From: Callorhinchus milii
Taxonomy: Eukaryota
Reading direction: 5' to 3'
NCBI RefSeq assembly: GCF_018977255.1
Contig: NW_024704760.1
Span: 2,852,001 to 2,916,000 of the forward strand
Length of the DNA stretch: 64,000 nt
This document shows positions 25,470 through 62,300 of this stretch, piece by piece. A program made the translations under genes and the position numbers. The notes under the pieces are model-generated. The model worked only from the letters and a program-made list of their open reading frames with translations, made no database searches and was not told the origin of the DNA. How positions within the stretch are numbered: position 1 is the first letter of the stretch; each line of letters starts with the position of its first letter.

Positions 25470-26776
25470 ATACGATTTATGTGGGGATTATTGTATTCCC
25501 TTCTCCCTCCCTCCCTCCCTCCCTCCCTGGTGTGTGTGTGTGTGTGTGTCGATTGTCCACAGTGATTGTCCATATTTGTTTGGCTCAAACCTATCCTAAT
25601 GGGAAATACCAGCTGGGGCGGTAGGGGGCGCTCTCGGCTTGCTGTTGAGCTCCTCTGATCCACTGTGTCCCCCCCCCCCCAACCCCGGTATGTCCGCTTA
25701 CGCCCGTTTGCATGTTTGGGCTTATTGACAGGTAGAAAGAAAGGCAGACTGTTTCCTTGAGAGCAAACCCCCACCCAAAATTCGCCTCTTTTACGAACAA
25801 CAACAACAACAAGATTCCATTTATTGAGCGCCTTTCACGTCCCAAGGCGCTGGGTAAATAAACAGGTGAACCCTTTGCACCTTTCGTGTCGTCAGAAGCT
25901 CTCAAAGGATCTGGCTGTCAAGCGGAGTGACTGTGCGTTCTGCGGGCGAAAAACCGTGGTGGTGTACGAGCGATGGAATTTTATCTCCTTGAGGGGGAGG
26001 GAGGAATTGTTAGCGGGGGTGGTGGGGGGGGGGGCGGGGAACAACGACAACAACTTGTGTTTCATATAGCACCCCTCACGCAGGGGTGGTGTCCCGGAGC
26101 GCTTGAAACTCCCTTCTCTTTTCCGAGCCGTGTCAGAGGAGAGGTCCATTTAGGTCAGTTCCCTCCCTCCCAGCTCCGAGCCTCACGTTTGCTATTCATC
26201 AGGTCACCCGTCCGAAATAAAACGCTCGTCAAACCCCCACAAGCGAGAGAATCACTTCCGGACGCTCTCTTGTGTTTTTTTTTAAAAAAAATTCTCATCT
26301 CAGGAGCCGGGTTTCCAAATGTCAAGAGCCCAGAAGAGTTACATCACATCACTCTGTGTGTGTGTGTGTGTGTGTGCGTGGGTGGGTGTGTGGGTGTGGG
26401 TGGGTGTGAGTTTGTGTGTCGGGAGGGGAGGCGGTTGGAATAGACAAGCGAAGAGCTGCCAAGTTTATTTATTTACGCCCTTGACTCACCCACCCTCCCC
26501 TCTCCCCACCCTGCCTTTGCCATCGGGACCCGACCCCACCCTGACATATCGGACGTCTTAAAGGTGTTGTATTTAATGTACTGTGTGTGTGAGTGAGTGA
26601 GCGACTGAGCGAGCCAGGGCGCGCGCGCGTGTGTGTGAGAGGTTTTTTTCTGTGTGTCAGCAGTACTTCAACCTGGTCTCTGAAAATAAAGAGCATCACT
26701 GGGCAAACTGAAATCTAGAAGCACGGGTTTATTTTTAGTTGATGCCTCACCCACGTGTCGGTTTAAGTTGATTAGA

Positions 26777-29269
26777 ATGTTCCACCAGGCAACTCACAAC
26801 TGGACCTGTGCAGTTGTTCTCCTCGGCCTTCTGATTGGGATAGGCTTCCCGGCTCCGATTGCACCCAGAGCCAGCGAGCGATGGGAAACCTTGCTCTCCA
26901 GGTCCATGCACCCTGTGTCTGGTCGGAGGCTTGACCTGGACTGGGACAGGGAGTATTACACTGGCATCAAGCGAGTCAGGAGGCTTTATTGCAACGTGGG
27001 CATCGGGTTTCACCTGCAAATCACGTCCGACGGACAGATTAACGGGATGCACCAGGAGAACCAGTACAGTAGGTAGTTCTCTTGACGGTCAAAATTCTTG
27101 CTTCTCTTGGCTTTGCCGGACAGATGCTTGCTCTGCATGCCGTGAAGGGGAGAGAGAGTGTGTGTGTGTGTGTGTGTGTGTGGGTTGGGGGGGTTGTAAA
27201 TATGCAGGATTCAATGAGACATTTTTGCCCCCTCCTCACCCTATAAGGTTTAGCGAGGCGAGGTGGGCGAAACGCAATGTTCATTGAAACAACCGACGCT
27301 CACTGTGCTGACCCATGTTCATCGTACGCTTTGAGGTGCTGATACCGCCCCCACCCCTTCCCACTTTCCCTCGTGTGAGCTCGTTCCCATCTTGAGCTGT
27401 CCTCAACCTTCCAGCCACCCCCCCCCCACCCCATTCCCACCAGCTCCCCCCCGCCCCGCTCACACACACACACACACACACACACCCTACGCTCAGCGAA
27501 TTGTCACCTTGGGTCATGTTTCCCATGTAAAATTCGGAGAACTATAGAATAATATAGTGGGATACAGTGTATATCCCCCTCCTCTTGGCTCCTACCTCCA
27601 GCTCGGGCGCTACGCCAGAACCTTATAGGAAATAATATCTTGGGATACAGTCATTTGGGACACGGCATGTCAAGCGACTGCTGGGATGGTGGAAAGTGAA
27701 CTGGATGCACCTTGGTCTGTTTTCTCCGAGCAAATTCGTACGTAGAAGCGGAGAGTTTATTTTCCAACCGGCAGGTTTTGCTTTAGATCGGGAGATACAG
27801 GAGGATAGGGACTGGGAGTGTTTGTTTGTTCGGCTGCCAAAATGCGATCGAGTTTCCCGAGCAGCTGATTGAAGTTTCGCACAGCAAAACGAAACCCAGT
27901 CTTGGTTTAATGCAGGCCAGAGTTGAGAGACCATTGAGACGCATCTGTTTCCATATCTTTCCAGACGTGAACGGTGCTGTCTATTGAAAATAATAATAAT
28001 AATAATAATAATGGTAATAATAATTTGGTCACTTCAATCCGCGACTGTTTGTGGGGACGCTGCCGTGCGCAATTGGCGTCCACGAAATATACAGTCAATT
28101 CACATCACGGTGCATTCTGCGAAGCGCTTTGAGACGTCTCAACCACGTGACAATGCGCTGCATCAATTGCAATGATTATCATTACTATTATTGTATTGTA
28201 TTTACAACACGGTCCGGTTCGAACTGTTTTCGCACAGCTCCGTGCTTTAATCGGCCGCTTTTCTTGGCGAAGAAACCGATGAAATTCCATTGAATTCCAA
28301 CGGAAATCAACCGAAACCTTGGACAAGCGGTTGGCTTTCAGCTGGAGGTTATTCTGTCTTGGCTGAGGCACAAGTTTAGATCAGCTGATTATAGCAGGAA
28401 CCAGGAAAAGCAGTTCGTATTGGTTTTAATTAGACCGCCTGGATGCCAGGGCAAAATTAGCCAGCAGACTGACCAGTGTCAGGTTGCAGTGTCAGCAGTG
28501 TTTCATAACATGGGAAACTTGGGGACGGGGGACCAGGGGGAACGGGACTTATTTGCAAAGGACTTTGTTTCGCCCAGAAAATATGCAGTCACTGCACCCT
28601 GCGGTATATGCTGTGAAGCGCTTTCAGGTGTCTCAATGAGGCGCTTGATCAAATGCAAAGCTTATTATTATTATTATTATTATCATTATTAAATGAGTTT
28701 TTGTTTTCCCTCTACAGAGCTGGTGTGTGTGTGTGTGTGTGTGTGTTTGGGCCTGTTTTTACCCACTTGATAGATATCTTATATTAATAATCCTTGCATT
28801 TGATGCAGCGCCTTATCACGTCCTCAAAGGCGTCTCAAAGCGCTTCACGGGACACACTGTAAAGTGGAGTGGCTGTGTATCTTGTAAGTGAAACGCAGAA
28901 TCCAGTTTGCACGCAGCAATGTCCCACAAACAGCCATGGAGTGAGTGACCAATTTCATTTGGGGAATTGTTGGGCAGGACACCGGGAGAGAGAGAAGCTC
29001 CTCTCTCTTTGCGAATAGCGCCGTGGGATCTTCAACGTCCCCCTGAACAGGCAGACGGGGAGTGAGGTTTTAGCGTCTCAACCGAAGGACGGATACTTTG
29101 TTCAAATGCAATTTTTTTTAAGAGCTTTGCAAAAAATCGGGTGGAGGTTTCGATGCTTTTGTTCCTTCGCCAGTCTTTAAGACGGGTTATTTTATTTTAA
29201 ATTATTATTATTTTTAGCTCCAGGCATCCCACCTACAAAAGGAAATCCTAGAGATAGATTGTTGGAATG

Positions 29270-29300
<31 letters not shown>

Positions 29301-30039
29301 GGTGGGACGCATTCTGCTTACCTAATGCCGGAAAGTATTAGGCGCGGGTTCCACAAGAGCCAAGGCTCGGGTGGGGGAGACCCCAGAGTGTGCGTTGGGT
29401 GAAGAAGCGGTGGGGGGTGCCCGGGGGGTGAACAACGACTGAGAATAACACAGACTAGTTAGCGATGAATCTCTCTTGCTGTTTAGGCCTGTTGATGATA
29501 TCTACAGTGGAGCTGGGAGTTGTCAGTCTGTATGGAGTGAAGACCCGGGTCTTCATTGCGATGAATAAAAAAGGACGTTTGTATTCAACGGTGAGTGTTC
29601 CACTTTATAACTGTGTTTAAATGAATTGGTTCTTTGAAAGCTCTGCCACTGGTAAACACTGTCCAGCGAGCTTCCTTCTACATACACCCTCACACCCCAC
29701 CACCAACGCCCCCACCTCCCCCTCCCATCCAACACCCAAAGGGGGACTTACCTCCCCCACACCCACACAGAGAATGTCCCACCCAAGTATGACACGAAAC
29801 AAATAATTATGGAGCGTGTTTATCCAAGCTTTTAAATAAAGAAAAATATATTTCTCCTGCAGACAAACTTCAACCACGAGTGTAAATTCAAGGAGAGATT
29901 CTTGCCCAACAGTTACAACGCGTATGAGTCGAAGGCGTACGTGGGAATGTACATCGCGCTGAGCAAACACGGCAGAGCCAAGAGGGGAAGCAAGGTCTCG
30001 CCCGTCCATAAGGTCGCTCACTTTTTGCCGAGGATGTGA
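26777..30039 (+). CDS. Fibroblast growth factor, FGF4/FGF6-like, secreted, ~190 aa, 3 exons
   Basis: Exons 26777-27068, 29487-29590 (the canonical 104-nt FGF exon 2) and 29863-30039. Signal peptide [12 protein letters not shown], then [39 protein letters not shown]...AMNKKGRLY and [18 protein letters not shown]...[17 protein letters not shown]...HFLPRM*. The family is clear; FGF4 vs FGF6 orthology is not. Confidence 0.93.
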
Positions 30040-39691: not shown

Positions 39692-42600
39692 ATGGCTGGG
39701 CTCTGGACTGGTGTGTTGTCTATGATTTTTAATATAATGGATTTCCATTCTTCGCATTGCTTATCGGAAGAATTGGTCGCTAAATAATGTGTGAACGTCT
39801 TAGCAGCTTGGAATTGTTGAGTATTTTCAGTAGGGCCTGTGTCGAGAGTGCAATAATATGTCGGCAATGTGGGTGTGCTTTGATATTAATCTTTTGCTTA
39901 TTTCTATTGCAGTGGGATTGGCGCTTTTGCTTCAGCTGCAGCTGGGTAAGTGATAGCTTCTGCGGATTTGGCCCTTATGTAGTTAGCTCTGTTTTTTTTA
40001 TCCTGCCCTCTCTCCTTCACCATATCCACCAAGCCATGAGATGCATTACTGAAAGCCTGTCTGTCAATAATTTCCTGAGGTTACTCATTAGATTGAGAGC
40101 CAGAAGGCAGAGAGGGTAGGGAAGGAATGAGACATCGAGGAGAGGGAACTAATTGCAAAACTGCGCCAAATAAAAAAGAGGTTTGATCGCGTTTTTCGAA
40201 TATAATCCAATAAAAGAAAAGCACAGTTTATTTCTAACCTAATGAAAAAAACAATACTTTTCCCCCTTCACCTTGCTAATTTCATCACGGGGGGTGGGGG
40301 TGGGTGGGGGCACTCTTTGTGCTTCATATGTTTTGCCTTTAAAGCGCTCTGGGACGCTACTCTGCGTGAGGGGCGCGATTTAAATGCAAGTTGTTGTTGT
40401 TCCAGCCTCTTCCTTCAAACTGGTTTGTTACTACACCAACTGGGCTCAGTACAGACCGGCTGCCGGTAAATTCTTCCCCGAGAATGTGGACCCCTGCCTG
40501 TGCACCCACTTGATCTACGCCTTTGGCAGTATGACCGCTAACCACGAACTTACCACCTACGAATGGAATGATGACATTATGTATCCGAGATTCCAAGCAC
40601 TTAAGAACAGGTTACTTCTGCGCTTAAATTTTGCGACAACGACGGCAACATTTCTCAGTGTGTACAATGTAAATAGATCTGTCAGCGATTGCACTGGTTA
40701 CGAGCTGTTTTTGGAGCGTATAAATAGCAATTCAATTGAGAATGAATCGAATGAAAACAGTCAGTTCATATTTGATGTATTTGCTTCCAACAGTAATAAG
40801 GACCTGAAGACATTGTTGGCTATAGGAGGCTGGAACTTCGGGACTCAAAGGTAAGAGCTGAAATATTTTATTCTTGTTAACGAATATTTGATTGCCGTTG
40901 GCAGCTCCTTCCCACACTGGGCAAACCAACAACATTTCCCATACATACATGGAAGACTCAGCTATTTGGTTTGGATGCTCCCAAGCACGTTGATGGGTTT
41001 CAAAATAAACCAATAAATAATAATATATTGGTCACTCACTCCCACAATTGTTTGCAGGACACTGTTGTGCACAGTTGGCTGCCCGTCTTTCACCCACAAA
41101 ATACACGGTCAATCCACTTTACAGTATATTCTGTGAAGCGCTTTGAGACGTCTCGAAGATGTGATAAGGAGCTTTATCAAATGCAAGGATTATTATTATT
41201 ATTATTATTATTATTATGATTGTATTTGTCAAGGTGCCTGTAATAAGGAATTCTGAATCTGCTCCCCAGGTTCACCAGCATGGTTTCCAGCGCAGCCAAT
41301 CGCAAGACTTTCATCGACTCGTCCATCAGGTTCCTGAGGAAACATGGCTTTGATGGACTGGATCTGGATTGGGAATATCCCGGTTCCAGAGGAAGTCCTC
41401 CAGAGGATAAACAGCGTTTCACCGTCCTCGTCAAGGTAACTGCATCCCCACGCCTGTCAAACACATCCCCCAGTGTGGCTATCACGCTCTATTGTGAAGT
41501 CCTGTAGCGTAGTAGCTGGAGCACTCGCCTTGCAAGCGTAAGGATCCAGGTTCGATTTCTGTGCGGGACAAAACCTTAGGCAAGTTTCCTTACTCCGCAG
41601 GCTCTCTGTTTACCTAGCAATAAGTAGGGACCTTGTTGCTAGTCGATTGGCAAATCGTCTTCCGGGAGAAATAATCCCTTCAAAATATAAAATGTGGTCA
41701 ATCAATCTACGACTGTTTGTGGGACGCTACTATGCACAATCGACTGCTGAGTTTGCCCACAAAGTACACCGTTAAGCCGCTTTGCAGTATATTGTGTGAA
41801 GCGCTTTGAGACGTCTCACCGATGTGATAAGGCCCTATATCAAACGCAAGGATTGTTATTATTATATTAATTCTGGACATCGCTGTGGGAAACTAGTTGG
41901 CTAACGTACCACCATTAACCTCTCACACCAATACTTTATCAGGAAATTTTGGAAGCGTTTGAAAACGAAGGACAAGCGACAGGAAGAGCTCGTCTGTTGG
42001 TCACAGCTGCGGTGTCCGCTGGCAAAGGAACCATCGATGCCGGCTACGAAATGGGTCTCCTCGGCAAGTAGGTTACATGATTTAAGTAAACATCTTCTCT
42101 CCTTCAAATCCCACATTAACTAGTTCGCCAATGAATGAACTTCATTTGTAGAGCGGCCTTTCATGTCTGGAGGATGTCCCAAGGCCCTGGACAGTCAGGG
42201 ATTTGGTTTCCGAGCAGTGGTTGGGATCGGGAGGTATAGAGGGCAGGAAGGGTAGGGGTAGGGGAGTGACCGAAGGAAGCGATTGAAGAGGAGGGTCTTG
42301 AGACGTGCCTTGAAGGAGTCGATTGGCAGATCGTTGAGATGGAGTTCCAAAGGGTGGGTGGTGGGGGGGTTGGGTGGTGATCACCCAACATGGTTGAGAC
42401 ATCTCAAATGCAAGGAAAGTGATGTGGTTCAGGAAATGAGATGGAGTCTAAGCTGTCGCTGCTTATTTGTGTTTCCAAAGATACTTCGATTTCATCAGCG
42501 TGATGACGTATGATTTCCATGGTGCCTGGGAAACCAAAACCGGACACAACAGCCCGCTGTACCGCGGCTCGACTGATCAAGGCGACATGATATACTTTAA

Positions 42601-44765
42601 CACTGTGCGTATTGACCATTAAACTCAAGGCGATTACTGTTTGGTTTCAGACCCAACCCCAGCCTCTTCTCCCCAATGCTAATCACCAAGCCGAATGTGC
42701 TTCCTTTCCAGGACTTTGCTATGAAATACTGGAGAGATGATGGGGTCCCGGCCGAAAAGCTGCTGGTGGGATTCGCTACGTACGGACGCACCTTGAGACT
42801 CTCCACGTCGAACTCTGGGGTGGGAGCTCCAGCAAGTGGACCTGCACCAGCTGGAACCTACACCAGAGAGGCTGGGTTCTGGGCTTACTATGAGGTGACT
42901 ATAAGTTTGTCACTGCATAGCAATGTATCCAGCAGGATATGGATTCCTGTAGCGTAATGGTTAGAACGCTCGCCTCGCAAGCGAGAGAACCCGGGTTCGA
43001 TTCCCGGGCAAGCCGAAACCTTAGGCAAGTTTCCTTACTCCAGACACTTACGTGTTTAACCGGATAACATTGGTAGCAAAGAAAATGCTGACAACGTTTC
43101 TTATTCCATGAACAGATCTGCGACTTCTTGAAGGGGGCACAAACCTCATGGATTGAGGATCAGAAGGTGCCTTATGCCTACAAAGGAGATCAGTGGGTTG
43201 GGTATGACAATACGAAAAGCTTCGAAGGCAAGGTAAGAATCGAAGAACTATTTTTATTTTGTAGGGCGTACTTTAATTTGAGTTTCATATCACGCAGTAC
43301 AGTATCAAATATTCAGTCAATTCGCTTTGCGGTATATTCTGTGAAGCGCTTTGAGACGTCTCGATGATGTGATAAAGTGCTATTTCAAATGCAAGGATTA
43401 TTATTATTGATTATAACAGTAGATAAATCAGCCTCCCTGCCCTCCACCTCTCTTGATGCCACCCCGAGCTTGGGTCCAAATCTCTGACTGTCCAGCGCTT
43501 TGGGACATCCTCCCGCCGTGAAAGGCGCTGTGTAAATGTAATTTGTTGTTGTTGTTGTTTCATGCACTGCACCACTTTTGGTGCACTTTTACTCCCACAG
43601 GTCGCCTGGCTCAAACAGAACAGCTTCGGAGGAGCCTTTGTGTGGACTCTCGATCTGGACGATTTCACTGATTCTTTCTGCAGCCAGGGTCGCTATCCTC
43701 TGATCTCCAAACTGAACTCTCTGCTTGGAATTTCTCAAGGTAACTTGGTTGTTCCTGGTCTTTTTTTTGTACACACAACACACACACACAGTGCAATTAT
43801 ATATTCCAAATCCATTTTTACTAACATTGCTCCAAGGGATTTTGTATCTAATATGAGGAATGGTATAAATTTGACACAGTTTATTAAACATGAATATACT
43901 ATTTTCAATGCAATACAAAATTATATTTGTATTGCGCCTTTGGCGGGGTGGGCCTTTTGCCACTCTGCCCCTACCCGCAGTCCCTCTGCCTCGTCCCCTC
44001 CCTTGCCTCCTTCAAGCACCATCTCAAGACACTCCTCTTCGACCGTGCTTTCGATCACTCTCCCCAATCCCGACCCCCAGCTCGGGTCCGAAACTCTGAC
44101 TGTCCTGCGCCATGGGATGTCCTCCTGACGTGAAAGGCGCCATATACGCACACGCACACACACACACACACACGTAATTTTGCTGTTGTTTTTGTCGATT
44201 GAGGTGTTAAAGTCAAACCCACAAAACCATAACATTAAATTGCTTCTCCGTGAAACCTCGACCCGTCCTCAAGCTCTGCCGACGACACACAACACGTTTC
44301 TTTTGACTTAAAAGTCATCTCGGCGTTTCAGGACTCTTTTTGATGTGTTTTTTTTTTGCAAAGGTGACATAGTGGTTTCACTTAACGATTCGCCCACGAA
44401 CTATACAATCAATTCACTTTACAGTGTATCTCGTGAAGCGCTTTGAGACGTCTCGAAGACGTGATAGGGCGCTGCATCAAACGCAAGGATTATTATTGTT
44501 GTTGTTATTTACGATTTTTAATAACTCTTCCCTTGCAGATTGCACCCCTGGACCAAACCCCAGCCCGGGTCCAACCACTACCACAACCCCTGGTGGGGGT
44601 GGTCCTGGGGACGGAAGCTTCTGCGATGGAAAGCCTGACGGGGTGTACGCTCACCCAGACGCCAGCAATAAGTTCTACGAATGTGCCGGAGGGAAGACCT
44701 TCGAAAAGACCTGCCCCAACGGATTAGTCTTCGACGAGTCCTGCAAATGCTGCAATTGGCCTTAG
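39692..44765 (+). CDS. CHIA: GH18 chitinase 1 (CHIA/AMCase-like) with Pro/Thr/Gly linker and one C-terminal CBM14, ~464 aa, 11 exons
   Basis: Exons 39692-39710, 39913-39945, 40406-40610, 40794-40850, 41270-41435, 41943-42067, 42481-42604, 42712-42894, 43116-43232, 43601-43739 and 44539-44765. Motifs: signal peptide [43 protein letters not shown], intact catalytic [25 protein letters not shown]14 FCDGKPDG...FYEC...[17 protein letters not shown]. The symbol is a family-level call. Confidence 0.93.
41500..41870 (+). mobile_element. Full-length tRNA-derived SINE, same family, in chitinase 1 intron 5
   Basis: Same head, body and tail as 11245-11610. Other copies at about 2870+, 6258+, 7690-, 9230+, 10440-, 14345- and 42945+, plus dozens of tail-only fragments. 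Confidence 0.8.
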
Positions 44766-45539: not shown

Positions 45540-45992
45540 TCACAGCCAATCACGACTTCAGATAGCGCAGGAGGCATTTCACAACCAACTAGCACCACAG
45601 TTTAAGATCCATAATTTTGCCTCAAGAAGCCTGATGTGAACCCAAATGATCCTATCACCTTCTATCAATGCTCCAATGGAATTATGTGTGTCTAGCAGTG
45701 TCCCAGTGGGATAGTCTTACAATCCCAATGGTGATTGCTGTGACTGGCCAAAGGTCTACGATACAGACTTTTGCCACAACAATCCAGATGGTAATCATCC
45801 AAATGTTAATGAACCCTCCAGCCTCTATCGTTGCTCCACTGCAGTAACTCACACAATGCAGTGATATAGTCTTGTGCTGTCCTGTGATTATCTATACACA
45901 CCACAGGGGTCAAATAGTATAACAAGCGTTTACATACAACTGTCCTCCGGATAAATATAAAACCATCAGTTACTGCCGAGCCTGGGATAACT
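45540..45992 (+). pseudogene. Decayed multi-CBM14 chitinase terminal exon (S/T/P linker plus 2-3 chitin-binding modules with stops and frameshifts)
   Basis: Manual translation from 45540: SQPITTSDSAGGISQPTSTTV*DP*FCLKKPDVNPNDPITFYQCSNGIMCV*QCPSGIV(+1 shift)YNPNGDCCDWPKVYDTDFCHNNPDGNHPNVNEPSSLYRCSTAVTHTMQ*...SCDY, then in another frame AFTYNCPPDKYKTISYCRAW. This follows the CBM14 pattern of both flanking chitinases. Confidence 0.8.
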
Positions 45993-47996: not shown

Positions 47997-50900
47997 ATGA
48001 CAAAGCTGCTTCTCTGGGGTGGTGAGTGCAATGTTAACCCTGACTCTTTACAGACTGCATGATTCCCCCCAAAAAATTAAATGACAGTTTTTGCGCACAA
48101 AATACCCAGCGCGATAATCAAACTACGTACCTATAACTAAAGTGTTTTTGTTAAAAAAATTCAGGAATAGTTCTGAGCATCTATAAACATCAAAATGCCA
48201 TTTAAGATTCATGTTTTTCCTGTTCATTTTTCAGTGGGATTGATCCTGTGCTTCCAATTGTACAATGGTAAGCTGTGATACACTCTAACCTTTCAGTCCT
48301 TAAATTTCTTATGGTGAATAATTCTATGTTTCACCACTGATGCATTTACTTGTTTCAGATGATCGAGCATTTTAAAATTGGGATCTAATTTGCAGCGTTT
48401 CTTAACAGGTTTCTTAATTAGAAATGCGCATTTATTGCATTTCTGAGCCACTAATATCTGAATTTCTAAACCCCCAAATTCCAGACATTCGATAACGAAT
48501 TCTTCAGCAATTCTTCAATGTTTCAGAGAGTCAGCGACTGCACATTCCTTGTTCAGAAATCAATTAAGAATGAATGCAAACCAGATCCATTGCCTCCTCT
48601 TACAACGTACGAAAAATAGTACCTTTCACCTAGGAGAAAATCTCAAAAAGCTTTTGGAATAAAAACCGAAGTCGCTGGGAACACTCAACTAATTTGTAAC
48701 CCATTCTAAACCAGTATTAGGCAAAGACTACAAACTGGTTTGTTACTTCACAAACTGGGCCCACAGGAGAGGAGACTGTAAATTCTTACCGAAAGATATT
48801 GACCCCAAGTTGTGCACACATCTCGTGTTTGCTTTTGCCACCATCGGGGAGGATCACCAAATAGTTGCCCAGGAGAAGGACGAGGAAGAGCGTTTAGTTG
48901 CGTTCAATAACCTTAAGAAAAGGTAACCATCACCTGTCGCTTAACACATCTTGTTGCATCTCTGTTTACCTAACAGCAAGCAGGAACCCGGTTGTTAGTC
49001 GCATGTTCGCTTCAGAATAAATTCTATTTGCCGATATTCTCAATGGGTGACTGTTCGGCTAAAACGACTGTAAAAATGTAGAACTCGAGCAAATGGGAAC
49101 TCGAGGAGACCATTTTTGTTTTCCGAAAAATAAAATCTTTTGAAATATTTAACGCTCAAAAATTGGGTCTTTTTTTTTTGAAAAAAAATAAAAATGAGGA
49201 TATTTTCTCGCCTTTTCGCAGGAATTCGAACCTGAAGACTCTCTTAGCCGTTGGCGGCTGGACATTCGGAACTGAAAAGTAAGATTCTTATGAATGGTAA
49301 ACAACTAATTATTCTACAAACTCGTGTTACAGTGAGTCTGAATTTGGGAGGCGGTGGTGGTGGGGGGAATGTACCTAAAGTATAACATAAAGTCTCATTT
49401 CCAAAGAGGTTGGATGAAAAAGGCCCTTTGGTCCATTTGTTCTCATTGTACCACGATAATCAAAGTAAAGCTTCGTATAACACCATCAAATGTTCCCTGA
49501 CTTACAGAATCATAGAGCACAGAAGGAGCCATTCGGCCCATCGTGCCTGTACCGTCTCTTTGAGAGCGCTACCAACTAGCCCCACTCCCCCTGCTTTTAC
49601 CCCATTGCTCTGCAAATTTTGCCACCACCTTTCCTGGTAACCAATTGCAGCTGTTCGCTACCTGGTGTAGAGAACCGTGTCCTGAAAAAAAAAAGGCAAA
49701 ATGACGCAGTTTTGTCATATTGCGATTTGTTCCTTATTTCAATTCATGTTTCTGTCAGGTTCACTGCCTTGGCTTCTATGCCAGACAATCGCCAAATATT
49801 CATCAATTCATCCATTAAATTCCTGAGGAAATACAAATTTAATGGATTAGATCTGGACTGGGAATACCCGGGGTCGAGAGGAAGCCCACCGGAAGACAAG
49901 CAGCATTTCACCCTGCTGGTTCAGGTGTGTCACATATAACCTTCGACTCCGCTCTATTCATCAGCGAAATCAGATTGTGTCGATTACACTCGCACCAAGG
50001 AATATCCAACCTCAAGGAATGGTTCACGTTCAATTGCACTGCCGTTGGATCCAGAGTCGTGAACAGATTCACCCACACAGAACGTACCCATTGAGACAGT
50101 ACCTGTTACTATTCCTTTTATGGGGAAAGGAGGGTAAAATGCAGGGATTCCTTCGAAGCCCAGGAACACTGGGTGTACATAGACTGGAAGGAGAAAAAAA
50201 AGCCCAAGACCCATCAGGTTTACTCAACCCTCTCTTTCCCATGCCACCTCCCTCACAATGTGCACCTCCACATCTCTCCTCTGAAAGGTGCTATGCATTC
50301 GTAATTCGTTGTCGTTGCTGCTGCGGGGACGCTATATACATGCAAGTTGTTGTTGTTGCTGATTCAATGCTGTACTTGTGTATACACAGGAATTGCTGGA
50401 GGAATTTAAGAGCGAAGCTCTCAGACGTAATAAGCCAAGGTTGCTGCTCACGGCTGCAGTGGCCGCTGGGATAAGGACGATCGAAGCCGGCTACGAAATA
50501 GACAAGATTTCCAAGTGAGTGGGAACCCCGTAAGGTACGTCTCCACACATCGGAACAAACACCACGACAGCCCGAACAGGAGCGGACACAGAATGTTTGA
50601 AAGAACGCCCCCTGTCCTCTAGAAATATTCACGACAGCGGTGCCAAGGTTTGGAAGGAAGCGAGTATGTTTCGCCCACAAGACGTACAAGTCAATTCATC
50701 TGACAGTATATCCTCTGAAGCGCTTTGAGACGTCTAGAAGACGTGATAAAGCGCTGCATCGAATGCGAGGATTATTACAATTATTACCGGAATTAATGTA
50801 AATAATGACAATTCTTCCAGTTGATACAACGTGAAAACGTTTCAAAAGCGCTTCACGGGGAATCGCTGTCAAGTGCAGAGACCGTTCCTTAATATCGCAA

Positions 50901-53820
50901 GTAGCAGCACGATGCCTAAATGCCTCGGCCCTATTTCGCTTCACGCTCGACTACAATTAACACAGCACCTGGTTTATTTTTTTTTTAAACTCTGCACAGG
51001 CACCTCGATTTTATCAACGTGATGACGTACGATTTCCACGGTCCCTGGGACAAACTGACAGGACACAACAGCCCCCTGCACGCGGGCTCCACTGATCAAA
51101 ACGATGACGTGTACTTTAACGTGGTACGTACGAAAAGGGCCACTTACTTTCAGAGACTTTCCATTCGGAGTTTTTCCGAGCGTGAGAAAAGCTCGGCCCC
51201 ATCGGTGACGAGGTTTAATTAAACCTTTACCCTCCAGGAGTACGCCATGAACCACTGGATAAAACACGGGGCTCCCGCCGAGAAACTGTTGGTTGGCTTC
51301 GCCACATACGGTCGCGCCTTCACGCTCTGCACGACTGATAACAGACCCGGGGCATCAGCATGTGGGCCAGCAAAGCCAGGCCGATGCACTGAGGTCCCTG
51401 GATTCCTGGCCTATTACGAGGTGTGTTTTGAAAGGCTTAACCATTGAGGGTATTTGCGTGTTCCGAACCCTTGCCACCACGCACTCCGCACCACTCTACC
51501 ATTTCGCCCACACAATACACAAGTCAATTCGCTGGACGGTTTATTCTGTGCAGCGCTTAGAGACGTCTCAGCCACATGATAAGGCGCTGTATCAAGTGCA
51601 AGGATTAGTATTGTTATTACTATTATTATTACTACTCACCAGCCAGCGATTGGGACTCTTGGTTGGCTGCGTGGGTTGATCTTATGGGAGAAGCAGGTGA
51701 AATACCTTTGAGACTCTTGGCAGCCAACCTACTTCCCTGGTGAGCAGTAATGCTGTCCTCAACAGCTTTGTGCAACGAGTGCCTTTCCGCGTTAGGGTAC
51801 GAGCTTCTCCCTTAAAATAGGGGCAAAAATGTTATTTTTTTGTTAGAAAAAAATGTGCACCTTTTTCTCTCCACCCCCCACCCCCCTCACCCCTTCCCCC
51901 CTTCCCTCCCCATCAACAGGTTTGTGACTTTTTGAAAGACGCCGAGAGAAAATGGATCGAGGATCAAAATGCTCCGTACGCTTACAAGGAGAACGAGTGG
52001 GTCGGGTATGATGATGCCACAAGCTACAAGAAGAAAGTACGTGTGGAACTCCATTCCAAAGTCCCTTCACCTCGCCCCCCACCCCCACACCCATTCTTGC
52101 CTGCGCCTTCAGGTCACCCTCCTACCCCTTTTTGCATATATACCCAATTGTGCAGCCCAACACAGCTTACAAAGGAGTCACTACACTTGACCAGAACACA
52201 TGTAAAATACTTTACAAGATCCCCGAAACAGAAGTGCTGTAAAAATACAGATTTTCTTCTTTCTTAAAATTAGTTAACAACTTCATGACTGTTTGTGGGT
52301 CAATGCTGTGCGCAAGTTGGCTGCTGCCTCTGCCTTGAAATACACAGCCACTGCACTTTACAATAAATTCTACAAAGCAATTTGAGACATCCTCCCGATG
52401 TGAAAGGCACTAAATCAAATGTAAGGATCATCATATAAAAGTTTGATTGCTCATTTTATGTCTCCATTTAATGCACTGAATTGAAATTGAATTGAAACAT
52501 TGAACCCGATATCCTAAACTTGAATACTGTTAATTAAGCCTGAAGGAACTTGGAGCAAAGTTGTCTCTATGTGTGTAATAGCGTTGGAAAAAATACTTAA
52601 GGTTTTCAATCAAAGTTTACCTCACAAACTGTTTTCGTGTAAGGTTCAAAAGAAATGTTTGGTGTTTAGTTTTGGTGGGTTGCGTTGGCTGATTTAAACG
52701 AGAGGAGAAAAAAAATATAGAAAGAAAAAAGTATTTTGAATGACTTTGATCCCCTCAGGTCGAGTGGTTGAAAAACAATAACTTTGGAGGTGCAATGGTG
52801 TGGTCGATAGACACGGATGATTTCAAAGGAACTTTCTGTGAGCAGGGAGCATCGCCCCTAATAAACACCCTGAAGTCTCTGCTCTCTGATTCTGCAAAAA
52901 ATACAACAGGTAAAAAGCATTCAGTACAAAGCGCTGCCGGGAATTCTCTCGTTCAGTGCAAAGAACATCAAACAAACCAACAGTATTTCTTAGAACAAAT
53001 AATCACTGGAGCTTTGAGTAGAATTTCCAGCTCGTGGGGAATTAATTTGCTGTACGCGACGATAGTTAAAAGTAATCGTGTCTGCGAGACTGCGGCTCTT
53101 TCATGTGAAGCCTCGTCCACAAAATACGCAGTCACTCCACGTTGCGGTCTGCTCCGTGAAGCGGTTTGACGCGTCTCAATGAGGTGACGAGGTGCTCCAT
53201 CAAGCGCAAGGGTTGTTAAGTCGGAATGTTCTTTTGTTTTTTTTCCCCCCACCTCTTCAGCCGGGTCCACCTCACCCCTGGCCACAACTCAAGCCCCACC
53301 GGGCTCGGAGTCGGTCGACCTCTGCCCCGACCTGAAATTTTGCCGCGGCAAGAGGGACGGCGTCTACCCAGTGCCGTGCGCGGTGGCCAGCTTCTACCAG
53401 TGCGGCAACGCGAGCACCAACATCCAGAGGTGTTACAGGGGCACCGTCTACAACGCCACCGAAAACAAATGCCTCTGGCCTCCGAGGTTCTCTCCGACGA
53501 TCAACCTAGTTGAGAACAACTTCTGCAAAGGGCAAGCGGACGGCAAGTACCCGATGCCAGTCCCCACCTACCTCCAATGCTCCAGCGGCAGAATGCGCGT
53601 CATGGAGTGTCCCACCGACCTGCTCTACCATTCGACCACCGGAAACTGCGAGAGTGCGAACGCCCCTGCAGATTACGACTCCAGATATTGCAAGCACGCT
53701 CGCGACGGCACCTATCCCATCCGAGGCAGGCCCACCAAGTATTACCAGTGTGAAAATAAGAAGACCGCAATACAGCAATGCCCCCGGGGGAAAATCTACA
53801 ACAATTTCCGCAAGTTCTAG
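47997..53820 (+). CDS. GH18 chitinase 2 (CHIA-like) with three tandem CBM14-like modules, ~582 aa, 11 exons
   Basis: Exons 47997-48021, 48235-48267, 48715 (or 48721)-48922, 49222-49278, 49759-49924, 50390-50514, 51000-51123, 51238-51420, 51920-52036, 52759-52909 and 53261-53820. Core exon sizes 57/166/125/124/183/117 match chitinase 1. Signal peptide [17 protein letters not shown]; catalytic [12 protein letters not shown] retains DxDxE; the last exon encodes three F/YC..DG.YP..YQC..C..Y repeats. Confidence 0.92.
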
Positions 53821-56365
53821 GACTTGTCAAGTCGTGCAGCAAAGTACTCTACATCACCGGAAACCTGGTCAGAGGTTGCGATTAAATTAAGATCTAAACC
53901 ATCGCTTTCTGGAACTGCTGATCAATGTCAAGCATTTCAAAGCAATATATAAACTCTAAACTAAATATCAGCTCTTATATATTCCAATAGAGGCAATCTG
54001 GACACACACACGCACGCACTAGAGCATCAAGTTGACCTACATTCATATTAAAATGCTTTTGATCAAAACTTTCGCGCTTTTTAAAAAAAATATGAATACT
54101 GAGAATAAGTGTTTGAGTGCATTTTTACGGAGCTGCTTTGGGTTTGTTGAACCAAGTAAAAATAAAAAAACGGCCATTTAACGGTAAACACGAGATACCA
54201 CAGTGCAGGATTCTGAGCTCCCCAGTCTTCTCTTTAAGAGCAATCGCGTTCTGCACAAAAGCAAAGACAAAAGGATTTTGGTTATCAATGCACGTTACTT
54301 CAGTGTTTGTGACATAACTGGTTTCACAAAGAATAAACTGGAGCTTGAATTGGACGATGTTCTGGTTGTTGGGATAAGCAGCAACGACAACTTGCATTTA
54401 TATAGCACCCCTCAAGCAGGGCAGTGTTCCACAGCACAACACAGTAAGGAGGCTTAATTATTGTATTGGGGAAAACGCTTAATTCAATATGCTTTAATGT
54501 CAAGTCAATAGACCCCTTGGGCGAAATACTTAATTCACCTTAAAACACCCGCCAAAGTTGCAGTCTAACATGGTTCGAAATGACAAAGTCTATTATTGCG
54601 GACAGATTTTTAACCAGGTTAAGGAACAACCACATTACAGTCTTTTAGCATAGAAACCAAGTGCACGATGACATGCCACATTATTCATAATAAATGTAGC
54701 CAATGATTAAATTCACTCCTCTGTGTATGTGTGGGTGGGTGTGTGTATTGGGGGAGGAAGGGTGAAAAATAAGAGGGGAAGGGAGGAAAAAACACTAACC
54801 TTGCCAAATTCGCATTTGCCCTTAAGCAGAGGGGGGGGATTTGTACATTCAAAACTTGTACAGTCAAACAAAATAGACGTACAGCATCAACAGCTGTGTT
54901 GCATCAATCTTTCAGACAGACAGACAGTCCATAAATTGTCTCTCCACCCACTCAGGGGCTGGGAACCACAGCTTCCCGATCAGAACAGAGATCAATATTG
55001 TATCAATAAAGAATATATATATATATAAATAAGGAATATATATATATATAAAAAATCGAGTAAGTAATCGACAAGTGGACATGAGTTAAAAAGCATTTAA
55101 TTTCTGTCCGTACCCAATGTATTACTTCTCAACTTCATACTTTTTAACATTAAAATTCATGTTTAATGACTCAAATTGCACAGACACACATCATTTGTTA
55201 TTCGCTTGCAAGCTGGTCTGGTAATGGTTTCGAACAAACATTCGACCAAAATACAATTTAAACGCATCAAAGGTGTTGCAATATTTTTAACTGTGAATTC
55301 CAAAAGTAGAATGCAAATACTGCTAAGAAAAATATAGCGAGTAGGCATTCACCTCCAGCAGGAATTAGACTTTTCTACGGTGACGCTTTGAGTTCTTGAA
55401 CCACTTAATACATGAGAATAAGTGTGGGACTTAAAATAAAAGTGAAAACAATTCGTTTTTTTCCCCCCGTTAATATTGTATCGATACAATACAATTTGCA
55501 GATAACACAGTCAACCTCCTAGCAAGATCAACACTTCAGCAGACAAAGAAAAGTTGGTCTGAAGAGGGAAAATGCTGGTGTCTTTATGGGGTAATCTTAA
55601 TAGGTCGCTATTAAGTCTGTCCAGTGTTCTCCCAGTGACCACTGATCCTTTCCAAGTTTGATTTAGCTGGAATTAAGATCCAATATTTCTAGTGTTCTGA
55701 ATAGTTTGAATTCTTTTCAGAAGCACAATCAATTTTCTTGAGTCTGTGCTTTTTGTTTTAATATGTGTGTAAAAAAAAAGATTCTTTTCTGCACTTTCTT
55801 CAAACCTGCAGAACACAAATGACATTATCAGTGGATACGGTTACACCAATCACGCTACCTTCTGCGGTCCAAACCTTCACCACTGCCGTTTCCAATCAGA
55901 CAGTGAGTGTGTTAAAGAGTGAATAAAGTTTCAATGTCAAAGGTATGGGTGCCATCGGTAGTATTGCAACTAACACCACTACAAAACCACAAACCCAAAT
56001 TCGACAGGGTTTTTCTTTTAAACAACAAAGTGCAACGTAAAAATTATTCGACATACTATGATACACACTGAGCTCTCCTACAGTAATAGTCAAATGCGTC
56101 TTTGTTTATTTAACAATTTCAAAACTCTCAACCTTTCCCAATAATCGCCACAGGTATAATTTGTTCCCCACCAAAAAAAAAATTGCAGGATAATAATAAT
56201 AATAATAATTATGAATTATAACAGACAATTTGAAAATAGTCAGATTTTCTAAGAAAGATTAGAGTTTAACACTCTTGGTGTTGATTTATTTGTGATCGCT
56301 TTTGAAGCTTCTACACAGAGGTCTCACAAGTTCGAGGAAACAAGGTACAGTACACACACGTACCA

Positions 56366-59300: not shown

Positions 59301-62300
59301 ATTAAGCGCACCTTCAGTGGCTTCTTCCAAAGCGTCGGGCAGAGATTCGTTGTCACTTTTCTCGGGATCATCTTTATCATAATCCTCCTGCCCTTCCTCG
59401 TCGGGTAAGTGCAACTTGGAATTTTCCATTGCTGCAAGCAAGGACACAAACCAAAAATATTCCCATTTATTTGAAACGAAGAACTGATGGGTACATCGCA
59501 AGCAAAGTTGAACCACATAGCTGGTTTATGCACTCTAAGACTCGATCTTAAAAAGGGTACATTATTTGCAAGGTGAATCGTAATTTCGAGCAAGTTGAAA
59601 AACAAAATCTCACATACCATAATTTTGTTTTAAAAACACTAAAAGATTCAGAGCCTGATAGACCACAATCCCACAGACTTTATTTTGGAAAGGAAGAGAA
59701 ACGAACAAGCAGGACTTACATTAGCAAATGGATTTGAATTAGTCGAATTTGCTGAACAGAAAGTACAGGTGTTTGACCTTACGCCAAAAGCTGGTAACTC
59801 GTAGTCTAGTCAACTTACGTTCTCCTAAAGCCACCTGTTGGGCAGAATTTTTATTCAATATGCCCAGTCAACAAACTTACCATTTATGAACTGCATTTCA
59901 AAGTACTGTCGATTTGACATGGTGAAACAACGAACATCAGGAATTCTTCCATGGATCTCTTTCTTTGGAAGCATTTCTAACAGTCTATTGAGATCCCAGT
60001 CTGATGACAAACACACCTTAACAAATCTGCGTAAGACAACACAACAGTTTACTTTTTGCCACCAAAACAGTAACAACAACAACTTGAATTTATACCGTGG
60101 TCTCTCAGGCAGGGTAGCGTCCCAGAGAGCGCTTACTATGATCATTCAAGCGCAGCCACGGACTGGCTTCGGAAATTCTTCGTCTTACATAGGATCAGGA
60201 GTAGGCCATTCAGCCCCTCGAGCCTGTTCCGCCAATCTATTAGATAATAGTTGATCTGTACCTCAACTCTAATTACTTCTATAATATCTTCACATGGAGA
60301 TCCTGGTGTACAGTAGCTCACCCTTTTGACTGTCCGCCTTTTTGAACTTCATAAAATTTGATTCGATCGACGTTACATATTCCAGCTGTACGAATGGCCG
60401 CCATGATGTCGTCATTTGTTGTCCACTGCGGGAAAGCAACACAGCCCGAATCAGCAAAGGCAGATGGTCATTTCTGTTGTGTTACTATTTCATTCAATCA
60501 CTCAGGCTTGGAGCTCAATTCTAACGTGATCCTTCTTTCCTTTGGACACTTTCGATGCAACACTGCTGCGCGCAAGTGGCTGCCTCCCAGAATATACTGT
60601 AAAGTGGGGTAACTGTTTTATTTTGTGAGCGAAATGTGGCAGCCAATTGCGCACAGCAGTATCCCCACAAACAGTCGTGGATCGAGTGACCTGAAATTTT
60701 TTTTTCAGATGGATTATTACCCCTGGAAAGCGATCCGCCAATCGCTCACGATATTTATAGCAAATATTGTTGTCGTGCTACCAATTCGCCATATCAGACA
60801 CACGTAACGATGCTATTGATTCAATATATTTTTATAAATAGTATGATACGATCAAAAATACTCACCCACGTCAGATTTCCGATGAGCAGAACCTTCTCTT
60901 CGGAACATGGAATTTCGATCCTCTGTGGAAGAGCAGGTTTACTGACAACGACAGGCTTTGTCTGTATGGTGATGTTGAAGGATTTGGGCGCTGGCACGAA
61001 ATCAAAGGGTGTCTCTTTAGGAACCAGCCCATTATTCAAAGGCACTCCTATTATATCATTTATCAGATCGTCGTACAAATCCTTCTGTTCCTCACTTTCA
61101 ATTTCCAGCTGCTAGAAAATAAAAGACACGGGAATGAAACGTTATCGCAACTTACCCCTGAAATGCACTGAGTGGAAATAATAATAATAATAATGGATAT
61201 ATTTACATTGACATTTGGACCTGTCGATTGTTGGTGTCAGTCATAGATACTGGATGTCACAACCCGGACTATCAGTTCGCCGGCAGATAATAATACAGTA
61301 ACAGCAGATAAAAAGACCTAATCTTTGCAATTTATGTAGCGTCTTATTACGTCATTGAGACGTCTCAAAGTGCTTCACAGAATATACTCCGTAACATCGC
61401 TCGACTCCACCACTACCTCACCCCTCAGGCCGCTGAAACTCTTGTTCATGTCGTCATCACCTCCATCCAGGCTCGACTATGCAACCGCCCTGCGTGTCGG
61501 CCTTCCCAACTCCTCCCTCCACAGCTGCAGATAATCCAGAACTCTGCCGCCCGTGTCCTCTCCCGCACCAAACTCCGTGACCCCATCTCCCCCACTCTCG
61601 CCCGACTCCATCGGCTCCCTATCCTTCAGAGGATCCAGTTCAAGATCTGGTCCTCACATACAAAGCCCTCCATGGCCTCGCCCCACCCTATCTCTGTGAC
61701 CTCCTAACCCCCTACCAACCCGCCCGCTCCCTCCGCTCAGCCAGCTCCGGCTGCTCCACATCCCCCGACCCACCCGCCCCATCACTGGCGGGAGAGCCTT
61801 CAGCCACTCTGCCCCCAACCACTGGAATTATATACCCCAGTCACTCCGCCTCGCCCCCTCCTTAGCCTCCTTCAAGTCCCGCCTCAAGACCCTCCTCTTC
61901 GACCATGCCATCTGCCACCCCCCTTCCCCTCCTCTCCCTTCTCCCCCACCCCCGCCCCCAACCCCAGCTCGGGTCTGAAACGCTGTACACAGTCGAGTGC
62001 CTTAGGACGTCCTCCCGACGTGAAAGGCACTATACAAATGTAATCTTCTTGTTGTTGTTGTATTGTAAAGCAGATTGACTTGTGTATTTTGTGGGCGAAA
62101 CGCGGAAGCCAATTGCACAGCAATAACCCACAAACAGCTGTAGAAATCACCAGCTTCAAGATCTAGTAAAAAATCTGTTTTTTTTCTTTTTTAGATGCTG
62201 ATTGAATTGCTGCAGATATCTAGCGTGTCTTCGTATTCACGGTTACGGTATTATTATCCACTGGTTAACTGATTGTCTGGGTTGTGACAACCAGTATCTA

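Follow-up and report, generated by a model that had tools for sequence, protein, structure and literature searches.

The downstream of two tandem chitinase genes in the window, the whole 64,000-nucleotide stretch of Callorhinchus milii DNA that we analysed, encodes a cartilaginous-fish GH18 protein with a tail of three CBM14 modules. Its residues lead us to suggest, with a probability of roughly 40%, that the subfamily to which it belongs anchors to, and remodels or scaffolds, the animal's own chitin rather than digesting prey with triple avidity. We prefer anchoring to endogenous chitin over a triple grip on prey chitin because only one module carries the binding residue and because the catalytic site is changed in sharks and rays. 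As judged from sequence, the protein would likely be an active enzyme for endogenous chitin in the chimaera, and sharks and rays likely have a weakened or lectin-like form of it. The gene, referred to here as gene B, has the following features (positions are those of the window):

47997-53820, + strand: gene B, an 11-exon GT-AG model with a 582 aa product
47997-48021 and 48235-48267, + strand: exons 1-2 of the GT-AG model, as in XP_007897731.2, with the ATG and a hydrophobic N-terminus, likely a signal peptide from its sequence
48715-48922, 49222-49278, 49759-49924 and 50390-50514, + strand: first four of exons 3-10, GH18 region
51000-51123, 51238-51420, 51920-52036 and 52759-52909, + strand: last four of exons 3-10, GH18 region
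within exons 3-10 (48715..52909), + strand: GH18 domain, residues 26-366 (Pfam PF00704, 346 bits)
49841..49864, + strand: catalytic motif NGLDLDWE (N136-E143), with D139/D141/E143 intact and the first Asp replaced by Asn
53261..53820, + strand: exon 11, with a Ser/Thr/Pro linker, three CBM14 modules and the stop codon (53818-53820)
53338-53481 (53323..53481 with the extra Cys418), + strand: CBM14 module 1, 35.9 bits, E 8e-9
53521-53655, + strand: CBM14 module 2, 36.2 bits, E 6e-9
53686-53817, + strand: CBM14 module 3, 34.0 bits, E 3e-8

The product of this model agrees with XP_007897731.2 (Callorhinchus milii) at 582 of 582 residues and differs from V9KD90 by two. The gene models are already public under the database name 'acidic mammalian chitinase(-like)'; judged by our alignments, the label 'acidic mammalian chitinase' is unsupported by the residues of the subfamily. 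The last exon holds an open frame of 185 codons (53263-53817), and its joint to the preceding exon, 52909 to 53261 (GT..AG, phase 1), is spliced in a contig of run X1, as the sequence-only reading had expected; X1 was taken as RNA by guess, no run being on record as RNA. Contigs of X1 include eight of the ten gene B introns among their listed joints, this one among them, and the other two are those of exons 1-2. An unspliced contig of run X5 covers 52399-54408. Runs X9 and X10 yielded next to no words of the gene B last exon yet contained spliced gene A, although contigs cannot show absence. Two coding variants were seen, 53345 G>A (R425H) in X1, X2, X5 and V9KD90, and 53798 A>T (Y576F) in X2, X3 and P0004. 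The full-length structure model is weak (pLDDT 49); from this low-confidence model, the fold match to human CHIT1 (6jjr) had a Z of 21.5 and an rmsd of 4.5 over 264 aligned residues, and the matches of the fold search were all taken up by the GH18 domain.

All three tail modules score above the Pfam CBM_14 (PF01607) cut-off of 22.1 bits, in agreement with the three repeats first read from the letters of exon 53261-53820. Two finer points of that reading were also borne out: no gene B module ends in CxCC, whereas the single module of gene A ends in CKCCNWP, and module 1 carries an extra Cys pair, C418/C436 (the C418 codon begins at 53323), which is invariant in 11 of 11 orthologues. The best PDB sequence match to the tail is the human CHIT1 chitin-binding domain. 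According to the available excerpt of PMC4844120, its disulfides are C420-C440, C450-C463 and C460-C462, and Tyr428/Tyr438 form a second candidate binding surface; binding is abolished without W465 and N466 (excerpts of PMC4844120 and PMC5459812). Modules 1 and 2 share the core Cys pattern of this domain, with the equivalents of C420/C440 and C450/C463 invariant across the 11 aligned proteins, but both are without the C460-C462 pair. Module 1 combines the four core Cys, the extra pair and a Trp, W469 (53476-53478), that is equivalent to W465, and its six Cys and Trp are the same in 11/11. Module 2 also has four core Cys and is without the CxC pair, and its W465 site is non-aromatic (S, N, K or T in 11/11). 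In the profile alignment, module 3 follows the CHIT1 domain up to CKC and ends at the C462-equivalent; it has three Cys in the chimaera, and none of the 11 proteins has an equivalent of C463 or W465 there. Only one of the three modules therefore has the Trp (11/11), while aromatics similar to Tyr428/Tyr438 persist in modules 2 and 3. The shortening of module 3 and the missing W465 equivalent of module 2 go beyond what had been read from the sequence before.

Identity among elasmobranchs reaches 82% in module 3 despite the missing W465 site, which suggests that a constraint of another kind acts on it; the corresponding values are 84% for the catalytic domain, 67% for module 1, 64% for module 2 and 52% for the linker. 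Its C-terminus reads CKC in elasmobranchs and RKF in the chimaera, and the Cys count of the tail is odd in both (13 in the chimaera and 15 in 10/10 elasmobranchs). The canonical partner of C570 (codon 53779-53781) is absent, and because chimaera module 3 lost both Cys of the C460-C462-type pair together, C570 appears to be unpaired in both lineages. Assembly error was rejected as a cause of the shortness of module 3, since neither X1 nor the unspliced contig of X5 shows a difference at the stop codon and the proteins of 10 aligned orthologues all end at the same column. The three modules are 29-41% identical to one another and 57-61% identical to their counterparts in Heptranchias; this rules out an assembly error or recent repeat expansion as the source of the repeats and indicates that the triplication is older than the split between chimaeras and sharks. 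That split dates to about 420 My. Folding the tail from its sequence alone gave nothing usable (pLDDT 33). In the weak full-length model, the predicted strands of modules 1 and 2 would be compatible with the distorted beta-sandwich (3+2 strands) of CBM14, and those of module 3 number three (block pLDDT 48-79). An Atlas search returned CBM_14 clusters only, under 0.9.

Among the best 120 of 2814 matches to gene B were 10 elasmobranch proteins with 98-100% query cover and 57-66% identity, and each of these shows three CBM_14 stretches. A word-limited profile search with the tail found 13 proteins, all of them chondrichthyan. Once cluster members are included, the set covers orthologues from 21 named species of sharks and rays. 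The full three-module tail is present in 18 of them; the models from Carcharodon, Hemiscyllium and Stegostoma have one module or none, through real loss or model error. A single clade (100/100) unites the chimaera GH18 domain with those of the 10 elasmobranchs, and the chimaera branches outside the latter.

The catalytic domain separates the two lineages. In the chimaera protein, D139/D141/E143 and Y215/D216 (equivalent to D136/D138/E140 and Y212/D213) are intact, whereas the orthologues of every one of the 21 named elasmobranch species show D138H and D213E (DxHxE and MxYE), changes that map to D138 and D213 by alignment to human AMCase and place a His at the position of chimaera D141. Since the window protein has a full catalytic triad, the argument from this His applies to the orthologues. 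In a set of 227 GH18 domains that is biased to top matches and includes isoforms, Asn in place of the first motif Asp occurred in 56, and DxHxE in 11, every one elasmobranch. The window protein retains the catalytic Glu, as does each of the 36 other records spanning the motif. Two cleft aromatics, the equivalents of Y34 and W71, are lost in 6/6 rows of the clade and present in most other rows. These residues guide the chain at the distal subsites. We found nothing on cleft residues in PMC5271402. The clade has also gained four Cys in the catalytic domain, at positions 41, 277, 288 and 296. The acid-pH residues R145, H208 and H269, as named in the available excerpts of PMC11182645 and PMC10761930, correspond to R148, N211 and R272 in the chimaera; H208 and H269 are missing from the clade. 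D138 orients E140 and primes or orients the N-acetyl group (excerpts of PMC11182645 and PMC3115046).

Phylogenetic analysis placed the gene B clade as sister to CHIA-like rows (Rangifer, quail and Polypterus), with support of 95/91 in a tree of 54 rows and 88/85 in one of 37; insect group III and mollusc rows lie outside the vertebrate clade in the 54-row tree. A grouping of the gene B clade with gene A was not rejected (p-AU 0.18). Because we picked the reference rows from the 227 domains and excised them from fused gene models, we treat gene B as no more than a candidate CHIA orthologue. The best PDB sequence match of the Heptranchias orthologue was AMCase (E 3e-139). Gene B thus resembles CHIA/AMCase, which has GH18 and one CBM14, in its GH18 domain, its sister position in both trees and its database name. 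It differs in its three CBM14 modules, the missing H208/H269, the lost Y34/W71 equivalents and the four extra Cys, and its elasmobranch orthologues differ further in D138H/D213E.

Upstream of gene B lie a canonical paralogue and a relic:

39913..44765, + strand: gene A, canonical tandem paralogue, first exon not located
45562..45870, + strand: decayed terminal exon, interrupted by stops and a frameshift, in which a phase-1 acceptor, a linker and two CBM14-like modules can be made out

Gene A has DGLDLDWE (DxxDxDxE) and one CBM14 (52.8 bits), and is spliced in contigs of X1, X9 and X10. A genome search for PF00704 gave at least eight matches, all in genes A and B. The relic exon is colinear with modules 2-3 of gene B (tblastn E 2.4e-6; 0 of 200 shuffles as good) and had no Pfam match. 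Its contig cover was zero in three runs, which is not evidence either way, and no GH18 exon was matched between it and gene B. Either gene A may once have used it as an alternative last exon, since lost, or it may be what is left of a third gene. It lies about 800 bp past the gene A stop, and it has a module end that reads CCDWP.

Between an SLC45A3-like gene and the chitinases is an FGF gene (26690-27073 and 29836-30036, + strand, Pfam FGF), which we take to be FGF4/6-like by motif. Exons at 59888-60425 (- strand) match the N-terminal part of the catshark model P0125 at 58-64% identity, a fusion of an RRM-type gene, presumably CPSF6/7-like, to the gene B orthologue; the fusion and these exons suggest that the two genes are adjacent in both species. 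Sortilin-family exons (L017:1812-5466, - strand) lie about 28 kb past the gene B stop. Synteny with these neighbours (SLC45A3-like, FGF and sortilin) could not tell CHIA and CHIT1 apart; human chitinase loci lie at 1p13 as well as at 1q32 (PMC1945033).

Vertebrate chitinases have been described as one GH18 with one CBM14, both in human (PMC4844120) and in 10/10 CHIA-annotated salmon proteins (PMC10234404), as far as the available excerpts of these papers go. The sequence-only reading took GH18 enzymes with several CBM14 modules as typical of arthropods and other invertebrates, but gene B does not stand alone among fishes. A HMMER scan with the tail profile found 670 proteins at E<=0.001, of which 150 were listed and 149 were new; five of these 149 have a GH18 domain, among the matches listed. 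Three of the five are gene models from teleosts in which the GH18 is followed by 4, 16 and about 33 CBM14 modules:

Channa argus: XP_067381966.1, GH18 with multiple CBM14
Siganus canaliculatus: KAM3617867.1 and KAM3617136.1, GH18 with multiple CBM14

Of the remaining two, one is a fused model from Esox and the other an unnamed protein whose CBMs are N-terminal. The teleost proteins (P0126 and P0133 of Siganus; P0262/P0277 of Channa) form their own clade (100/100) and nest among teleost chitinases, and a common origin with the shark genes was rejected (joint clade, p-AU 0.008). Several CBM14 modules on a GH18 are thus not unique to gene B among fish gene models, though the teleost proteins are no orthologues of it and we came across no publication on them. 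They are like gene B in having a GH18 followed by several CBM14 modules and an altered catalytic motif. Unlike gene B, they are known from gene models alone, their catalytic Glu is replaced by Arg or Leu, and their repeats are near-identical, keep CxCC and are joined by long Thr-rich linkers. Poly-CBM14 proteins without GH18 occur in Polypterus, hagfish, lamprey and sturgeon, among 10 of the 150 listed matches that were looked up. Vertebrate poly-CBM14 proteins include P0127, P0145 and P0283 (Polypterus), P0128 (Myxine), P0129 (Lampetra) and P0155 (Acipenser); the W465 site is aromatic in most of them (P0128 was not scored), and P0283 joins 22 CBM14 modules to a degenerate GH18.

Endogenous chitin had already been named from the sequence as a possible target, and the genome itself lends this weight:

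G000:C3:73023014-73025060 (L025, L026), + strand: chitin synthase exons, with CSPGCF, GEDR and QRRRW
G000:C2:3390263-3403332 (L014-L015), - strand: CBM14/Thr-rich mucin-like gene with at least eight CBM14 modules

The presence of a chitin synthase makes endogenous chitin a real option. The other two matches of the synthase search resemble hyaluronan synthases, with GDDR and, in L028, QQTRW. In the mucin-like gene, five exons spaced about 1.05 kb from one another are near-identical, and long Thr-rich repeats come after two of the modules; it resembles an insect peritrophic-matrix mucin. Chitin and chitin synthase have been reported in chondrichthyan ampullae (excerpt of 10.1101/687301). Chitinous gut membranes are described for ray-finned fish in PMC6109156, in whose available text 'shark' and 'cartilaginous' do not occur, and non-gastric fish chitinases have been proposed to remodel such membranes (excerpt of PMC10234404).

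If the own-chitin reading is right, the gene B product would be secreted and would bind chitin through W469 of module 1, with the gut lining or a similar matrix as its target. Modules 2 and 3, without the canonical site, could serve as spacer or partner-binding units, and the unpaired Cys570 may form an inter-chain disulfide. The chimaera enzyme would be active but not acid-adapted and only weakly processive, trimming the animal's own chitin. In sharks and rays, D138H and D213E would slow or remove hydrolysis and leave a chitin-binding, chi-lectin-like protein. Such a protein would share a degraded GH18 motif with the chi-lectins CHI3L1, CHI3L2, Ym1 and OVGP1 if the elasmobranch His form is inactive. 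Mammalian chi-lectins are not known to carry a CBM14. They are also without the catalytic Glu (PMC1945033), whereas the elasmobranch form keeps the Glu and has the middle Asp changed. The independent pairing of many CBM14 modules with a Glu-less GH18 in teleosts counts in favor of the own-chitin reading; the missing full tail in 3/21 species models counts against it.

The next explanation, which we consider rather unlikely, is a digestive chitinase for crystalline prey chitin in which three modules raise avidity, close to the high-avidity enzyme suggested by the sequence-only reading. The enzyme half of that suggestion is plausible for the chimaera, given a spliced gene with D139/D141/E143 and Y215/D216 intact, and the tail is basic (pI 9.2). 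Shelled prey form part of the chimaera diet. The sister relationship of the clade to CHIA, a digestive lineage (95/91, 88/85), favors digestion over the own-chitin reading, against which the possibility that CBM14 binds via other faces such as the Tyr428/Tyr438-like surface (PMC4844120) also counts. Digestion is further favored by the insect group II chitinase OfChtII, in which added CBM14 modules raise binding and activity (excerpt of PMC11402056). Although OfChtII is likewise a GH18 enzyme with several CBM14 modules (PMC11402056, same excerpt), its type has 3-5 catalytic domains, and group II lies outside our tree sampling. High avidity, however, is weakened by a binding Trp in one module of three, by the loss of two cleft aromatics and by the His at D138 in 21 elasmobranch species, where D138H/D213E persist despite very different diets; a canonical chitinase, gene A, also sits next door. 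A search for pepsinogen propeptides gave three unclassified matches and has no bearing on a stomach.

Alternatively, the active site may have been re-tuned (D138H, D213E, R145N/K and four extra Cys) toward a different substrate or transglycosylation with no loss of activity, which we regard as improbable. The clade keeps the catalytic Glu and the equivalents of Y212, W31, W99, W218 and W360, and its catalytic domain is 84% identical among elasmobranchs, but chi-lectins keep their clefts too and the H/E changes are absent from the chimaera. Narbonin carries a His at the D138 site. It is inactive though its Glu is kept (excerpt of PMC3662789), which weighs against retained activity, whereas D142N in ChiB raises transglycosylation (excerpt of PMC5505975) and CBM14 is able to bind hyaluronan and N-glycans (excerpt of PMC6109156). 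Least probable, by analogy with Ciona VCBP-C, which tethers bacteria to gut chitin by a CBM14 (excerpt of PMC6109156), is a mucosal immune lectin or enzyme that would bind fungal or parasite chitin or tether microbes to a chitin barrier: mammalian chi-lectins did arise by catalytic loss (PMC1945033), but Pfam shows no microbe-binding domain in the gene B protein.

In the literature on fish and shark chitinases, fish chitin and multi-CBM proteins, we found no description of the subfamily, most subscription journals lying outside this coverage; cloning papers reportedly exist on blue shark and skate stomach chitinases. Gene B remains a domain-count and active-site variant within a well-known family. 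The subfamily nevertheless offers a named candidate for the proteins that organise endogenous chitin in the fish gut and shark ampullae, and the comparison of its chimaera form (Asp) with its elasmobranch form (His) lends itself to testing how a chitinase turns into a lectin. A bolder version, about which we are doubtful, is that it constitutes a chondrichthyan dedicated chitin-matrix protein that predates the chimaera-shark split, became a pseudoenzyme in sharks and rays via D138H/D213E, a route not described so far, and is cross-linked by its free C-terminal Cys. If this were true, then such a matrix protein, together with the independent multi-CBM14 pseudo-chitinases of teleosts and the CBM14 mucins of vertebrates, would mean that chitinase genes served fishes on more than one occasion to build anew a peritrophic-matrix toolkit like that of insects.
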